A stretch of DNA of 64,000 nucleotides, from NCBI RefSeq assembly GCF_048403405.1, contig NZ_CP183129.1, one strand, 5' to 3'. A program made the translations under genes and the position numbers. A model generated the notes under the pieces. The model ran no database searches. It was not told where the DNA came from and was given only the letters and a program-made list of their open reading frames with translations. The number at the start of each line of letters is the position of its first letter. The stretch's first letter is position 1. This DNA comes from Escherichia coli. GTDB lineage: Bacteria; Pseudomonadota; Gammaproteobacteria; Enterobacterales; Enterobacteriaceae. This document shows, piece after piece, positions 2,681-54,872 of the stretch.

Positions 2681-5600
2681 ATGACAGTAAAAATTTCTGG
2701 CGTGCTTAAAGATGGCACAGGAAAACCAGTACAGAACTGCACCATTGTGCTGAAGGCCAGACGAACCAGCAGCACGGTGGTGGTGAACACGGTGGCCTCT
2801 GAAAATCCGGATGAAGCCGGACGTTACAGCATGGATGTTGAGCATGGCCAGTACAGCGTCACCCTGCTGGTTGAAGGTTTTCCGCCTTCACATGCCGGGA
2901 CCATTACCGTCTATGAAGGTTCCAGACCAGGTACGCTGAATGATTTTCTCGGTGCCATGACGGAGGATGATGTCCGACCGGAGGCACTGCGCCGCTTTGA
3001 GCAGATGGTGGAAGAGGTGTCACGTAACGCCTCCGCGGTTGCACAGAATACGGCAGCCGCGAAAAAATCAGCCAGCGATGCCAGTGCATCAGCCAGCGAG
3101 GCGGCAACTCATGCAACCGATGCTGCAGCCTCAGCACGTGCCGCCAGCACGTCAGCCGGACAGGCCGCGTCGTCGGCTCAGTCAGCGTCTTCCAGCGCAG
3201 GAACGGCATCGACAAAGGCCCGTGAAGCAGCAAAAAGTGCTGCTGCTGCAGAGTCATCAAAAAGCGCGGCAGCTACCAGCGCCAGTGCCGCGAAAACGTC
3301 AGAAACGAATGCCGCAGCATCACAAAAATCGGCAGCCACTTCTGCATCCACAGCGACCATGAAGGCGTCAGAAGCTGCCACCTCGGCACGGGGTGCGGCG
3401 GCCTCAAAAGAGGCAGCGAAATCTTCAGAAACGAATGCATCATCAAGTGCCAGTAGTGCAGCTTCCTCGGCAACGGCGGCAGGAAATTCCGCGAAGGCGG
3501 CAAAAACGTCCGAGACGAACGCTAAGTCTTCTGAAACAGCAGCGGGACAGAGCGCCTCAGCTGCGGCAGGTTCAAAAACAGCGGCTGCATTATCTGCCAG
3601 TGCCGCGTCAACAAGTGCCGGGCAGGCCTCAGCCAGTGCCACCGCCGCCGGAAAATCGGCAGAAAGCGCCGCATCATCCGCTTCAACAGCCACAACGAAG
3701 GCTGGCAAAGCCACTGAGCAAGCCACTGCAGCAGCGAGGTCTGCTTCTGCAGCAAAAACCTCTGAAACAAATGCAAAGACTTCAGCAGACAATGCTGCTT
3801 CCTCTAAGGCGGCAGCCGCATCGTCAGCCAGTTCAGCGGCGTCATCGGCATCATCTGCGTCTGCTTCAAAAGATGAGGCGACCAGACAAGCGTCAGCAGC
3901 GAAAGGTAGTGCCACGACAGCAACAACGAAAGCATCAGAGGCGGCAGGCAGTGCGACGGCTGCATCTCAGAGCAAAGTTGCTGCTGAATCCGCGGCAACG
4001 CGCGCCGAGACAGCAGCAAAACGGGCAGAGGATATTGCATCCGCCGTGGCGCTGGAGGATGCGAGCACGACGAAAAAGGGGATAGTACAGCTCAGCAGTG
4101 CAACAAACAGCACCAGTGAAAAGCTGGCGGCAACGCCAAAGGCAGTTAAAACTGTTAAAGATAGTTCAGTTCAAAAAACTGGCGACACAATGGGAGGGCA
4201 GTTAAAAATCAGCACGATAAATGCTCTTCGAATATTCAACCAAGCCTTTGGCCTTATTTTTAGGCGTTCCGAAGATCATCTTCATCTTATTCCGACTAAT
4301 GAAGGGGAGGGGGAAAATGGAGACATCGGTTCATTAAGACCATTCTCTATAAACTTAAGATCAGGGTTGGTGTCCATCGGTAATGGACTAAAAGTTGGTG
4401 GTAGTGTTACTGGTAATTTGACCGGAAACGCAGATACTGCGACCAAGATCAAGACAGCACGTAAGATTGGGGGCGTGGCATTTGATGGATCGGCAGATAT
4501 CAACTTGCCTGGAGTCAACGCTACCGGTAATCAAAACACTACAGGTAATGCTGCGACCGCCACGAAACTTCAGGCAGCCAGAACGATTAACGGTGTGTCA
4601 TTTGATGGTAGTGCAAATATCACATTGACCCCTTCAAATATTGGGGCATTGGCATTAACTGGAGGGACTCTTTCAGGTGGTTTAACTGCTGCTGGTGAGG
4701 TTATTTCAAGGTCAGCAAATGGTCTGCGTATTGCCTATGGCAACTATGGATTCTTTATCCGAAATGATGGATCAAACACATATTTTATGTTGACAGATTC
4801 GGGTAACAGTCTTGGTACGCACAATAGCTTAAGGCCGTTTATAATTAGTAACCATACTGGCAATGTTACAATTGCAACTAAATTAAACGCGAGTGGTGGT
4901 ATCACTGGATCTTTATCGGGTAATGCAAGCACAGCAACCAAATTGCAAACTGCAAGGACAATTAACGGCGTAAAATTTGACGGCTCGGCAAATATTGAAG
5001 CGTTTCCGCCAGGTGTTCCGCTGCCGTGGCCATCAGATACACCACCTGCAGGTTATGCGATCATGCAGGGGCAGACGTTTGATAAGGCAGCATATCCGAA
5101 ACTGGCTATTGCCTATCCTTCAGGTGTTATTCCAGATATGCGCGGCTGGACAATCAAGGGCAAACCCGCCAGTGGCCGGGCCGTATTGTCTCAGGAACAG
5201 GACGGCATAAAATCGCACACCCACAGCGCCAGCGCATCCAGTACGGATTTGGGGACGAAAACCACATCGTCGTTTGATTACGGCACTAAATCCACGAATA
5301 ACACCGGGGCGCATACGCACAGTCTGAGTGGCTCTACGGGGTCTGCCGGTGTTCATACTCATGGTAATGGTATTCGTTGGCCAGGAGGCGGCGGTTCTGC
5401 GTTAGCATTTTATGATGGCGGTGGGTTCACTTATGTCCAGAATTCACAGTATCAAGTAAGCCCGGAGACTTCTTCCTATAGATCGTATTATCAACGTATT
5501 CAGACACAGTCAGCAGGTGCTCATACCCACTCGCTGTCTGGTACTGCAGCAAGTTCTGGCGCACATGCACATACTGTAGGTATTGGTGCGCATACGCACT

Positions 5601-5707
5601 CCGTTGCGATTGGTTCACATGGACACACCATCACCGTTAACGCTGCGGGTAACGCGGAAAACACCGTCAAAAACATCGCATTTAACTATATTGTGAGGCT
5701 TGCATAA
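2681..5707 (+). CDS. stf: Side tail fibre protein
   Basis: 1008 aa; N-terminus [22 protein letters not shown] and C-terminus ..[11 protein letters not shown] match lambda Stf as recalled; stop overlaps tfa start (TAATG). Confidence 0.9.
3040..4060. repeat. GC-rich Ala/Ser-rich repetitive coding region inside stf with recurring AAKTSETNA units
   Basis: Near-identical DNA blocks (..aaaacgtcagaaacgaatgc..) recur at ~3293, 3418, 3498, 3751. Confidence 0.7.
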
Positions 5708-6291
5708 TGGCATTCAGAATGAGTGAACAAGCACGGACCATAAAAATTTATAATCTGCTGGCCGGAACTAATGAATTTATTGGTGAAGGTGACGCATATA
5801 TTCCGCCTCATACAGGTCTGCCAGCAAACAGTACCGATATTGCACCACCAGATATTCCTGCTGGCTTTGTGGCTGTTTTCAACAGTGATGAGGCATCGTG
5901 GCATCTCGTTGAAGACCATCGGGGGAAAACGGTTTATGACGTAGCGTCAGGGGACGAGTTATTTATTTCTGAACTCGGTCCGTTACCGGAAAATGTTACC
6001 TGGTTATCGCCGGAAGGGGAGTTTCAGAAGTGGAACGGCACAGCCTGGGTGAAGGATACGGAAGCAGAAAAACTGTTCCGGATCCGGGAGGCGGAAGAAA
6101 CAAAAAACAACCTGATGCAGGTAGCCAGTGAGCATATTGCGCCGCTTCAGGATGCTGCAGATCTGGAAATTGCAACGGAGGAAGAAACCTCATTGCTGGA
6201 AGCCTGGAAAAAGTATCGGGTGTTGCTGAACCGTGTTGATACATCAACTGCACCTGATATTGAGTGGCCTACGAACCCTGTCAGGGAGTAA
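5707..6291 (+). CDS. tfa: Tail fibre assembly protein
   Basis: 194 aa; [38 protein letters not shown] matches lambda Tfa as recalled. Confidence 0.9.
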
Positions 6292-6342
6292 TCATTGGGA
6301 TTATGCCGCAGCACGTCTTAAGCAAGAACGTGCTGCGGTTGG
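6131..6342 (+). repeat. Direct repeat copy 1: tfa 3' end plus downstream 11-bp-stem palindrome
   Basis: About 210 bp repeated at 7182..7391; last ~95 bp nearly identical by eye. Confidence 0.85.
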
Positions 6343-6345
6343 ATG

Positions 6346-7014
6346 CTATTTTTTCCCTGAAGCGGAAAACATTACTACAGTACCTTGAACCTTGGTTTTA
6401 ACATTCTCGAAATGCTCTGAGAGTATATGTGTTAAGCCTTCTTCGGAATCTTTTGTGTTTGAAAAGATGCCTTTCTGATTGTAAATGCGCATCAGTTTTT
6501 GACCGAAGCTATTGTGCACAACTCCATCGCCAAGAATTGTGGCTCCGTATAGAGTTCCATCGTCAGTTAAGGCCTGCGCCGCATTGCGTATTACACAGCT
6601 TTTTGTAGATATATTTCCAGGCAGGCAGTGAAGAAGGTAAAACATGGAAATGGAATCAAATTGACCATGTAACGCCGCGGGATAAGGTTCAAAAACATCA
6701 TGGCTAATTTTATGTTTAATTTTTGATTCCCCAGCCCTTGTAGATGCCGCGTTCAGGCTAGCTTCGTTCAAATCCATTAAAGATATCAGACTACTCTCAG
6801 GTACGTGAGTAAGGTAAAACCCAGTTCCAACACCAATATCCAGATGGTTGTTACCTACATGTTCCAGAAAGTGTGGAAGAAGGTGTTCCTTTGTAGGACA
6901 TCCCCATGCAAGCCGATTTGATACTCCCAAAACCCACCAGTCATAAAGCTTTAGGGTAAGTGGTGTGTAAATTTTAGCCCCATCATCTGTGTTTTTTTTC
7001 ATTGATTTCACCAT
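6346..7014 (-). CDS. Class I SAM-dependent methyltransferase, substrate unknown (prophage cargo gene)
   Basis: Rossmann motif I LDIGVGTG and downstream acidic residue (LMDLNE); AT-rich by eye; a second ATG 4 codons in (MKKNT, end 7002) has the better SD (GGTGA). Confidence 0.7.
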   Translation of the reverse strand: MVKSMKKNTDDGAKIYTPLTLKLYDWWVLGVSNRLAWGCPTKEHLLPHFLEHVGNNHLDIGVGTGFYLTHVPESSLISLMDLNEASLNAASTRAGESKIKHKISHDVFEPYPAALHGQFDSISMFYLLHCLPGNISTKSCVIRNAAQALTDDGTLYGATILGDGVVHNSFGQKLMRIYNQKGIFSNTKDSEEGLTHILSEHFENVKTKVQGTVVMFSASGKK

Positions 7015-7070
7015 GTTATAGTTTTATTTGTGAATTAAATCAATTATGGCGATGAATTACAAGGGGTTAA

Positions 7071-7340
7071 ATGCTGCCGCAGCATAGCGATATTGAAATA
7101 GCCTGGTATGCTTCGATACAGCAGGAGCCGAATGGCTGGAAGACCGTCACCACACAGTTCTACATCCAGGAATTCAGTGAGTATATTGCGCCACTGCAGG
7201 ATGCTGTAGATCTGGAAATCGCAACGGAGGAAGAAAGATCGTTGCTGGAGGCATGGAATAAATATCGGGTATTGTTGAATCGTGTTGATACATCAACTGC
7301 ACCTGATATTGAGTGGCCTGCAAATCCTGTCAGGGAGTAA
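7071..7340 (+). pseudogene. tfa remnant: C-terminal ~55 codons of a tail fibre assembly gene fused to an unrelated N-terminus
   Basis: C-terminal translation ..[51 protein letters not shown] parallels the Tfa C-terminus. Confidence 0.55.
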
Positions 7341-38226: not shown

Positions 38227-38568
38227 ATGATGAAAAAAAGTATTCTGGCGATTCTGTTACTCACCAGTTCTGCAGCGGCGCTGGCGGCACCGCAGGTGAT
38301 TACCGTCAGCCGTTTTGAAGTGGGTAAAGACAAATGGGCGTTTAATCGCGAAGAGGTGATGCTGACTTGCCGACCGGGTAATGCTTTGTATGTCATCAAC
38401 CCAAGTACCCTCGTGCAGTATCCTTTAAACGATATCGCACAAAAGGAAGTTACCAGTGGGAAGACTAAAGCCCAGCCCATTTCGGTGATTCAGATTGATG
38501 ATCCTAACAATCGCGGCGAAAAAATGAGTCTGGCACCGTTTATAGAACGAGCTGAAAAACTCTGTTAA
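38227..38568 (+). CDS. yebY: Periplasmic protein YebY (DUF2511)
   Basis: 113 aa with signal peptide. Confidence 0.8.
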
Positions 38569-38599
38569 TTACCTAAAATAGCCTTTTGATTTCCAATAA

Positions 38600-38900
38600 A
38601 AAAACCGCCTCAGTTCTTTCACCAGAACGGGCGGTTTTTAACATTTAAGCTGATGACCACCGCGCTTTTTATTGACCATTTTGCACGCAAACTGGAAAAC
38701 CTGGCGTCGTCATCTATTCTTAAAGGGCAAGGCATCTAAGCCTGCATTAATGCCAACTTTTAGCGCACGGCTCTCTCCCAAGAGCCATTTCCCTGGACCG
38801 AATACAGGAATCGTGTTCGGTCTCTTTTTATCTGTTAAAAGCCAGAAGCATTCCCTTCGCTGACTTTATAGTCAACCATAACACACACTCTACTGTCTGA
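38600..38900 (-). ncRNA. ryeA: RyeA (SraC) antisense sRNA overlapping SdsR (boundaries approximate)
   Basis: K-12 yebY-pphA intergenic locus encodes this overlapping sRNA pair; strong bidirectional terminator at ~38605..38640. Confidence 0.4.
38727..38829 (+). ncRNA. sdsR: SdsR (RyeB) sigma-S-dependent sRNA
   Basis: Sequence gcaaggc..gcctgcattaatgccaacttttagcgcacggctctctcccaagagccatttccctggaccgaatacaggaatcg.gttcggtctcttttt matches the remembered SdsR sequence; ends in hairpin + T-run. Confidence 0.7.
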
Positions 38901-38963
38901 GTCCAGCGTTTTTTAACATTCTTGTTAAGATTATGTGATCTTTAGCGCGGGAGGAAAATATTG

Positions 38964-39620
38964 ATGAAACAGCCTGCGCCCGTTTATCAGAGAATTGCGG
39001 GTCATCAATGGCGACATATCTGGCTTTCAGGCGATATACACGGTTGTCTTGAGCAGTTGCGCCGCAAATTATGGCATTGTGGTTTTGATCCGTGGCGAGA
39101 TTTACTTATCTCAGTGGGAGACGTTATCGATCGTGGGCCGCAAAGTTTACGTTGCCTGCAGTTACTGGAACAACATTGGGTTCGTGCGGTAAGAGGCAAT
39201 CATGAACAGATGGCGATGGATGCGCTGGCATCCCAGCAGATGTCTTTATGGTTGATGAATGGCGGCGACTGGTTTATTGCGCTGGCAGATAATCAACAGA
39301 AACAAGCGAAAACGGCGCTGGAAAAATGTCAGCATTTGCCCTTTATTCTTGAAGTACACAGTCGCACCGGCAAGCATGTTATTGCTCATGCCGATTATCC
39401 GGATGATGTTTATGAATGGCAAAAGGACGTCGATTTGCATCAGGTCTTGTGGAGCCGCTCGCGATTAAGTGAACGCCAAAAAGGGCAGGGAATTACAGGT
39501 GCTGATCATTTCTGGTTTGGTCATACACCGTTGCGCCATCGCGTGGATATTGGCAACCTGCATTATATTGATACAGGTGCTGTCTTTGGGGGCGAACTGA
39601 CTGTTGTGCAATTGCAATAA
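38964..39620 (+). CDS. pphA: Serine/threonine protein phosphatase 1 (PPP family)
   Basis: 218 aa; GDIHGC and GNHE metallophosphatase motifs. Confidence 0.9.
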   Translation: MKQPAPVYQRIAGHQWRHIWLSGDIHGCLEQLRRKLWHCGFDPWRDLLISVGDVIDRGPQSLRCLQLLEQHWVRAVRGNHEQMAMDALASQQMSLWLMNGGDWFIALADNQQKQAKTALEKCQHLPFILEVHSRTGKHVIAHADYPDDVYEWQKDVDLHQVLWSRSRLSERQKGQGITGADHFWFGHTPLRHRVDIGNLHYIDTGAVFGGELTVVQLQ

Positions 39621-53672: not shown

Positions 53673-54341
53673 TCCTTCCTCAATCTTGAGTAACCCCGTC
53701 GTTGAAGGGTTACTCAATTCATCCTGATTATACGCACTGCCATGGTGCAACTGCTTCAAATTAAAACTCTGGTCTGACTTCAAATAATTATCATATTATT
53801 TATTTGCGTAACGGGATATCAGAAAAAGATATTTAGCCCATTAATTTATTAGGATGTTTACATCGGATTTGTGATTAAGTGTGGTATTATTTATTAGCGA
53901 AACGTTTCTCTCTTGATTTTTTTGCGCATTCATCAATTTTTCTTATTTTAAATTTACAATACCTTTGGCGATTGACTTCTCTTTGGGGTGATCGATAGCC
54001 GTTAACTGACTGTTTTATGAGAAAAAGTGATATAACTTTTTATTCATTGCATAGCAGAAAATGTGATATTGCACGCACTATGTAATAACTTCTCCCACTG
54101 GCCTGGAACAACTGAACTTATTGAACTATGTTAGAAAATACGTCAGTTTAAGTATCTGCCTGAACTGGCAAGGTTAAGCACAATGATATATCGGCGCGTA
54201 TTCCGTTGCATAAGTGTGCAAAAAAAGTGGAAGACGTATCGAGATTTGTGCGTCTGATCGAGACATGTTTAAAAATGGCTTGCCATAATTAACGTTGTAT
54301 GTGATAACAGATTTCGGGTTAAACGAGGTACAGTTCTGTTT

Positions 54342-54485
54342 ATGTGTGGCATTTTCAGTAAAGAAGTCCTGAGTAAACACGTTGACGTTGAATACCGCTT
54401 CTCTGCCGAGCCTTATATTGGTGCCTCATGCAGTAATGTGTCAGTTTTATCTATGTTATGCCTGCGGGCGAAGAAAACAATCTAA
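54342..54485 (+). CDS. yobF: Small protein YobF (upstream of cspC)
   Basis: 47 codons ([33 protein letters not shown]...); read manually, not in ORF track. Confidence 0.75.
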
Positions 54486-54497
54486 GGAATTTTTCAA

Positions 54498-54707
54498 ATG
54501 GCAAAGATTAAAGGTCAGGTTAAGTGGTTCAACGAGTCTAAAGGTTTTGGCTTCATTACTCCGGCTGATGGCAGCAAAGACGTGTTCGTACACTTCTCTG
54601 CTATCCAGGGTAATGGTTTCAAAACTCTGGCTGAAGGTCAGAACGTTGAGTTCGAAATTCAGGACGGTCAGAAAGGTCCGGCAGCTGTTAACGTAACAGC
54701 TATCTGA
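54498..54707 (+). CDS. cspC: Cold-shock-domain protein CspC
   Basis: 69 aa; RNP1-like KGFGFI and VFVHF. Confidence 0.95.
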
Positions 54708-54753
54708 TCGAATCCACTGATCTGAAGTGTGAATACGCTTCAATCTCGCTATA

Positions 54754-54780
54754 AAGCCTCGTCGAATGCGAGGCTTTTTA
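54754..54780 (+). terminator. Intrinsic terminator after cspC
   Basis: GCCTCG-N6-GCGAGGC followed by TTTTT. Confidence 0.65.
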
Positions 54781-54872
54781 CTTTGCTTTATCTTCGCTCC
54801 AGTCGTTCGGATATTTGCCCGCCGCGTGATTCGCGTTACACTTGCGGCCTTTAGTATCCTGCCGGAGTTGTC

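Follow-up and report, generated by a model that had tools for sequence, protein, structure and literature searches.

The window (the whole 64-kb stretch of Escherichia coli DNA that was analyzed) contains two overlapping small RNA genes, sdsR and ryeA, in the gap between the yebY and pphA genes, and their arrangement is the same as in strain K-12. The features of the locus, with positions in the window, are as follows.

38227–38568, plus strand: yebY (DUF2511), an ORF with a Pfam DUF2511 match (E = 6.5e-44), annotated as yebY in K-12 and RefSeq; the upstream neighbour of sdsR
38569–38960: yebY–pphA gap, 392 bp, between two plus-strand genes
38600–38640, both strands: two-way intrinsic terminator of yebY (plus) and RyeA (minus), recognized by its fold and U runs
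38867–38596, minus strand: ryeA (sraC), antisense RNA gene, 272 nt; Rfam match at 38833–38689; 268 of 272 positions identical to K-12 b4432
38693–38723, plus strand: sdsR promoter of the sigma-S type, read from the sequence and identical to that of K-12
38726–38829, plus strand: sdsR (ryeB), small RNA gene, 104 nt; Rfam match; 103 of 104 positions identical to K-12 b4433
38740–38758, plus strand: target-pairing region of SdsR (nt 14–32), mapped for Salmonella ompD and followed by the core UUUAGCGCACGG
38795–38829, plus strand: Rho-independent terminator of SdsR, an 11-bp stem (38795–38805 with 38813–38823) followed by CUUUUU
38807–38829, no strand assigned: phage attachment core, the last 23 bp of sdsR, present as a single copy in the window
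38880–38875, minus strand: -10 element of the sigma-70 promoter of ryeA (38875–38883 with the preceding bases), TATGGT after TGT, i.e., an extended -10
38964–39620, plus strand: pphA (PrpA phosphatase, calcineurin-like phosphoesterase), an ORF with a Pfam Metallophos match, annotated in K-12 and RefSeq

The whole window was scanned against Rfam 15 at the curated gathering thresholds, and two of the five matches obtained were located in the yebY–pphA gap. The SdsR_RyeB model (RF00111) was matched over its full length (1–100) at 38730–38829 on the plus strand with a score of 113.1 bits, the threshold being 38 (E = 3.6e-21). The SraC_RyeA model (RF00101) was also matched in full (1–145), at 38833–38689 on the minus strand, with a score of 172.8 bits (E = 1.2e-39; threshold, 37 bits). 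Alignment to these two models had been proposed together with the original prediction, in which a near-exact match to SdsR was placed at 38727–38829 on the plus strand of the yebY–pphA region, with a terminator and an overlapping antisense RyeA. Both models gave significant matches; the location was borne out by the ORFs, Pfam matches and annotation of the two flanking genes, the terminator is present (stem within 38795–38823, then CUUUUU), and RyeA covers all of sdsR. Note that 100 of the 145 positions of RF00101 are the reverse complement of SdsR; since the RyeA model is thus mostly antisense to SdsR, the two Rfam matches are not independent. As judged by alignment, separate evidence for RyeA is provided by its own promoter, 5' part and terminator, which are near-identical to those of K-12.

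The curated MG1655 record, in which ryeA (b4432, 272 nt) and sdsR (b4433, 104 nt) lie between pphA and yebY, served as the K-12 reference. Alignment of the K-12 gap to the window revealed identity at 388 of 392 positions. The four differences are at 38647, 38662, 38735 and 38853; sdsR contains only the one at 38735, and none of the four touches any promoter or terminator. The sdsR gene (38726–38829) is situated wholly inside ryeA (38867–38596), with full complementarity and convergent promoters. All but one of 5426 complete E. coli genomes contain the yebY–pphA gap with an identity of at least 95%. No sequence evidence contradicting an intact sdsR/ryeA locus was found. We consider it almost certain from these comparisons that the locus is an intact orthologue of K-12 b4433/b4432, that is, the E. 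coli sdsR/ryeA pair; the remaining doubt is mostly about how much the RyeA RNA itself matters as compared with its transcription. The RNA pair is therefore an already known one, in its known place.

The original prediction described the pair as unannotated by the ORF track, which is true, trivially so for non-coding RNAs. For a genome whose gap is 100% identical, the RefSeq automatic annotation contains no feature over sdsR or ryeA, and none of the 60 RefSeq records among the matches listed has an annotated feature under the match. PGAP leaves sdsR/ryeA unlabelled in nearly all E. coli genomes, and the curated K-12 record labels both, so the unannotated status is an annotation gap and not biology. 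As a consequence, ORF-based tracks always show a seemingly empty 392-bp gap between yebY and pphA.

The promoter upstream of sdsR consists of a -35-like TGGAAA (38693–38698), a 16-bp spacer, a C at -13 (38714), the -10 hexamer TATTCT (38715–38720) and TAA (38721–38723). The -13C, a short (16-bp) spacer and an A/T discriminator have been listed as features of sigma-S selectivity (Frohlich 2012, PMC3333887). The sequence of the sdsR promoter carries all of these together with TATTCT and can be regarded as near-consensus for sigma-S. In K-12, replacement of TATTCT with CTCGAG (primers PM_SdsRF/R) abolishes SdsR (Choi 2019, PMC6610125), and this hexamer is unchanged in the window. The K-12 SdsR start was re-mapped by primer extension and 5' RACE to 1 nt downstream of the old annotation, i.e., to window position 38727, and the 3' ends were located at +100 to +102, which corresponds to 38826–38828 (Choi 2019, PMC6610125). 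The originally predicted start at 38727 coincides with this mapped start; the K-12 annotation begins at 38726.

The predicted fold of SdsR contains three hairpins (-35.2 kcal/mol, z -3.9). The terminator segment has a folding energy of -15.8 kcal/mol on the plus strand and -11.1 kcal/mol on the minus strand, where two G-U pairs turn into A-C, and there is no U tract behind the hairpin on the minus strand. Owing to this weaker hairpin and the missing U tract, the polymerase transcribing ryeA is not expected to stop at the SdsR terminator. The region of nt 14–32, mapped as the pairing region for Salmonella ompD (Frohlich 2012, PMC3333887), is identical to that of K-12 and near-invariant across the alignment of relatives; the core that follows it is invariant, although 38759–38774 served as the search pattern and is so by construction.

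On the opposite strand, the -10 hexamer TATGGT of ryeA is likewise unchanged relative to K-12, in which its replacement with CTCGAG (primer PM_RyeAF) abolishes RyeA (Choi 2019, PMC6610125). Three adjacent RyeA starts were mapped in K-12, the most downstream of which is the annotated 5' end and corresponds to 38867 (Choi 2019, PMC6610125); in window coordinates, the starts occupy 38869–38867, and ryeA begins 38 nt past the 3' end of sdsR. No convincing -35 element could be assigned; the best TTGACA-like hexamer upstream, TGGACT (38905–38900), has a 19-bp spacer, and with its TGn extended -10 the promoter may not need one. The two-way terminator at the other end of ryeA has a folding energy of -19.8 kcal/mol on the plus strand (z -6.1), with a U run after it, and -20.0 kcal/mol on the minus strand (z -5.3), followed by U7. 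The RyeA 3' ends found in K-12 at +261 to +270 correspond to 38607–38598 (Choi 2019, PMC6610125). The z-score of the RyeA fold is -3.0.

A generic promoter scan based on TTGACA/TATAAT sigma-70 criteria picked up neither the sdsR nor the ryeA promoter, since both deviate from these consensus hexamers; the two promoters were located instead via the mutagenesis primers of Choi 2019. The same scan revealed no sigma-70-like promoter from the end of sdsR to pphA (38830–38963). The sole sigma-70-like match in the region, CTGAAA-16-TAAAAT at 38552–38579 on the plus strand, is inside the 3' end of yebY, and 0.8 such matches are expected by chance. Its position is approximately that assigned in earlier work to a heat-shock promoter of pphA, which was found to be inactive by Choi 2019 (PMC6610125).

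Rfam matches were also observed elsewhere in the window. The STnc490 match (20936–20813, minus strand, 146 bits) is directly upstream of a 152-aa IS200 transposase gene (20803–20345; NCBIfam transpos_IS200) and can thus be attributed to the IS200 leader; this IS200 copy is flanked by pykA and lpxM, an arrangement shared with strain TUM14771. The IS009 match (6050–6248, plus strand, 225 bits) is inside a 194-aa ORF (5707–6291, plus strand). In other E. coli, identical DNA from this region (5600–7100) is annotated as a tail fibre assembly protein and a prophage tail fibre N-terminal domain protein, and it is found at a median of three places per genome; this tail-fibre DNA near 6 kb indicates that the left end of the window is prophage DNA, which neither K-12 nor TUM14771 has at this position. 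The "cspA thermoregulator" match (54322–54782, plus strand, 139.7 bits) covers the yobF-cspC transcript (the cold-shock gene is named cspE by PGAP) and is driven mainly by the similarity of the cold-shock protein coding sequence, its 5' part being poorly aligned. Colinearity with TUM14771, which was used to name distant features, held at 20 kb and 54 kb and failed at 6 kb, where the window has the prophage tail-fibre genes.

To find homologues, the 16-nt SdsR core (38759–38774) was searched against contigs representing one genome per species, and chance matches were set aside. A total of 104 genuine sdsR loci were retrieved from Enterobacterales, including Escherichia, Citrobacter, Enterobacter, Serratia, Yersinia, Pectobacterium, Dickeya, Erwinia, Pantoea, Photorhabdus, Providencia, Arsenophonus and Edwardsiella. 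The yebY gene is directly upstream of sdsR in 95 of them, and the upstream motifs CTGGAAAA and CTAnnCTTAA are kept across genera; this cross-genus sigma-S promoter motif agrees with Frohlich 2012 (PMC3333887). The pphA gene is found within about 200 nt downstream of sdsR in only five of the 104 loci sampled, namely in E. coli K-12, TUM14771 and the divergent locus L069, in Citrobacter werkmanii (L007) and in locus L110. The start and promoter of ryeA lie in the sequence that follows sdsR; this sequence is conserved in E. coli only and is unrelated in every other genus and even in E. albertii. In an earlier report, the conserved product of this locus was identified as SdsR and not SraC/RyeA, and the poor conservation of the latter was used to argue that it is dispensable for SdsR control (Frohlich 2012, PMC3333887). 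Our downstream comparison, made at the level of sequence, reproduces the view of SdsR as the conserved product.

Covariation was evaluated in a MAFFT alignment of 94 distinct Enterobacterales sequences, in which 21 base pairs were assessed. The SdsR structure was paired in 94.9% of the cells versus 23–46% in slid controls, and the terminator stem in 98%. Double-sided changes were found in 10 of the 21 pairs, and the terminator stem, with its 11 pairs, accounts for seven of these; the 5' half of hairpin 2 sat in the search pattern (38759–38774) and is invariant by construction, and hairpin 1 (78% paired) is weakly informative, as MAFFT shifts the register of its variable stem. The observed covariation score was reached by none of 500 shuffles. 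The helices contained 182 G-U cells versus 17 A-C cells, and the same helices were paired in 94.9% of the cells on the plus strand versus 86.4% on the minus strand. The excess of G-U over A-C indicates that the structure is maintained for the plus-strand RNA, SdsR. Among relatives, loops within the sdsR region vary in length by 1, 2 and 4 nt.

The last 23 bp of ryeB/sdsR have been described as a phage attachment site, with the 5' part of ryeA being replaced upon integration (Balbontin 2008, as cited in PMC7380047). No second copy of this 23-bp core, which would point to an integrated element, was found in the window at up to three mismatches; the site is empty, and pphA starts after 134 nt. 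Elements with lambda-type integrases occupy the site in E. coli PV0838 and in many other Enterobacterales. Two or three nnCGAAAW direct repeats with a 10–11-bp period are present at fixed positions within the approximately 70 nt past the sdsR terminator in at least 21 of 101 loci (for example, about 35–80 nt past the sdsR 3' end in loci L111, L090, L085, L097, L056 and L011). After the repeats, the sdsR 3' core occurs a second time, and next, on the opposite strand, there is an intact or truncated ORF of about 360 aa; two of these ORFs match the Phage_integrase, phage integrase central and lambda-integrase arm-DNA-binding domains (Pfam). Within a species, all repeats share the two bases that precede CGAAA, and these bases differ between species. 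This pattern is as would be expected for arm-type sites matched to each integrase. PV0838 (L123, 6262–7468) has the same layout, with genes for integrase, excisionase, RalR, RecT and RecE after sdsR.

The repeat and integrase layout fits the published role of the last 23 bp of ryeB, and the position of this known attachment site at the sdsR 3' end explains why the downstream side of sdsR is variable across species and often carries a lambda-type integrase. Another kind of insertion was observed in E. coli 2017-03-3CC (L124, 2777–3985), in which a transposase of the IS4-family ISVsa5 (IS10-like) is located inside the first hairpin of sdsR, at the equivalent of window position 38736. Judging by its position, this is a natural disruption of sdsR in which the promoter and 5' end are split from the rest. 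In 237 of the 5425 genomes with the gap, no single match covers at least 80% of it; this group is a mixture of IS and prophage insertions.

The function of the locus can be proposed by analogy with K-12 and Salmonella. In vitro, E-sigma-70 transcribes ryeA and E-sigma-S transcribes sdsR, and in K-12 an RyeA of ~270 nt is present in the exponential phase and is degraded together with SdsR via RNase III (Choi 2019, PMC6610125). In growing cells of the strain studied here, sigma-70 polymerase would thus make RyeA, and this transcription would collide with and dampen that of sdsR, as ryeA transcription in K-12 lowers sdsR and pphA transcription through interference (Choi 2019, PMC6610125). RyeA is predicted to run through sdsR to the yebY terminator, and SdsR mostly to stop before the ryeA promoter. 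At the entry into stationary phase or under stress, RpoS would fire the sdsR promoter and SdsR would outrun RyeA. Associated with Hfq, SdsR would then repress mRNAs by short pairing via its single-stranded 5'/central region. Its reported E. coli targets are tolC, yhcB and mutS, although mutS as a primary target has been questioned (Choi 2019, PMC6610125); Salmonella targets include ompD, for which Hfq-dependent pairing was demonstrated (Frohlich 2012, PMC3333887). Polymerases that pass the SdsR terminator would supply most of the pphA mRNA, which in K-12 comes mainly from read-through of this terminator from the sdsR promoter and is repressed by the act of ryeA transcription and not by the RyeA RNA (Choi 2019, PMC6610125). 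Over-produced SdsR would be toxic through the repression of yhcB and neutralized by RyeA, as reported for K-12 (PMC8610362). SdsR/RyeA is the founding "type VIII" toxin-antitoxin pair (Choi 2018/2019; PMC6610125, PMC8610362), and the remark in the original prediction on toxin/antitoxin-like behaviour agrees with this overexpression-based literature; applied here by analogy, the label rests on ectopic overexpression.

A reading in which only SdsR is functional, the RyeA match is its mirror image and the antisense transcription is interference or noise with no RNA role of its own is unlikely, in our opinion. The large antisense share of RF00101 (100 of 145 positions), the unrelated 5' part and promoter of ryeA outside E. 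coli and the G-U bias, which points to structure selected on the SdsR strand only, are all in line with it; Frohlich 2012 (PMC3333887) holds the same view, and the control of pphA by ryeA transcription in K-12 does not involve the RyeA RNA (Choi 2019, PMC6610125). However, the -10 hexamer, start sites and terminator of K-12 ryeA are all unchanged here, the ryeA promoter in K-12 yields an abundant RNA of ~270 nt (PMC6610125), either RNA accelerates the degradation of its partner, and SdsR toxicity is relieved by RyeA (PMC6610125, PMC8610362). Much less probable still is a reading of the SdsR element as chiefly a leader or attenuator that acts in cis on pphA and not as a trans-acting RNA. The distance of 134 nt to pphA, with no predicted promoter in between, and the read-through that supplies pphA mRNA in K-12 (PMC6610125) would suit such a leader, whereas sdsR is kept across the order downstream of yebY with pphA adjacent in only five of 104 loci, and its conserved part is a single-stranded seed typical of trans-acting sRNAs. 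The two roles are compatible and can coexist; a leader role does not account for the conservation of SdsR in loci that lack pphA.

The difference at 38735 is a rare allele. The T at this position (U in SdsR instead of the A of K-12, at nt 9–10 in the loop of hairpin 1) was found with a 41-nt probe centred on it in six of 5426 complete E. coli genomes, versus 5413 for the K-12 version. Five of the six carriers are listed (TUM14771, GN02461, 4621, MS 69-1 and TUM1226), and all five belong to the six genomes that are 100% identical over the whole gap. The position is outside the nt 14–32 seed mapped for Salmonella ompD, and its loop varies freely between species; it is probably a neutral lineage marker. 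On the minus strand, the T turns the TTG of K-12 into an ATG, with AGG 5 nt upstream, which heads a 38-codon frame. We give hardly any credence to a non-neutral allele, which would either shift the pairing or stability of the SdsR 5' end or make RyeA a dual-function RNA with an ATG-started 38-codon frame open only in this lineage. Equally implausible is the idea that the gap encodes small proteins, either from a 63-codon ORF on the plus strand (38672–38863) or from this 38-codon ORF on the minus strand (38735–38619). Both are present in the mechanical ORF list, and the minus-strand ORF has its ATG start only in this allele. In Citrobacter, Enterobacter, Lelliottia, Kluyvera, Yersinia and Serratia, however, the plus-strand ORF lacks a start codon and is broken by in-frame stops. 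The minus-strand ORF is interrupted in frame at codon 30 even in K-12, and its start codon is missing outside Escherichia. In addition, the loop-length changes of 1, 2 and 4 nt fall inside the region, and the curated K-12 record contains no CDS in the gap. Small proteins were rejected because of the missing starts and the in-frame stops in relatives and K-12.

SdsR is a core small RNA of the RpoS regulon. It affects efflux through tolC and the cell envelope through yhcB, possibly also mismatch repair through mutS, and together with RyeA it controls pphA. By analogy with K-12, the strain with this intact locus should have a normal stationary-phase circuit; beyond annotation hygiene, the importance of the locus is small.

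The closest known systems were compared with the locus. K-12 SdsR (b4433, RF00111) has the same place downstream of yebY, the same strand logic, sigma-S promoter, three hairpins and terminator, with 103 of 104 nt identical; only one base differs, U for A at 38735. K-12 SraC/RyeA (b4432, RF00101) has the same 272-nt span, TATGGT hexamer, starts and terminator shared with yebY, with 268 of 272 nt identical; it differs by four SNPs, and outside E. coli the 5' part of ryeA is non-homologous. The prophage attachment site at ryeA/ryeB of Salmonella has the same 23-bp core as the locus described here, in which, however, it is empty. Finally, as far as the sequence indicates, the locus is the same as that of the type VIII pair sdsR-ryeA (Choi 2018/2019), with an identical architecture of RNA toxin and RNA antitoxin and with convergent sigma-S and sigma-70 promoters.
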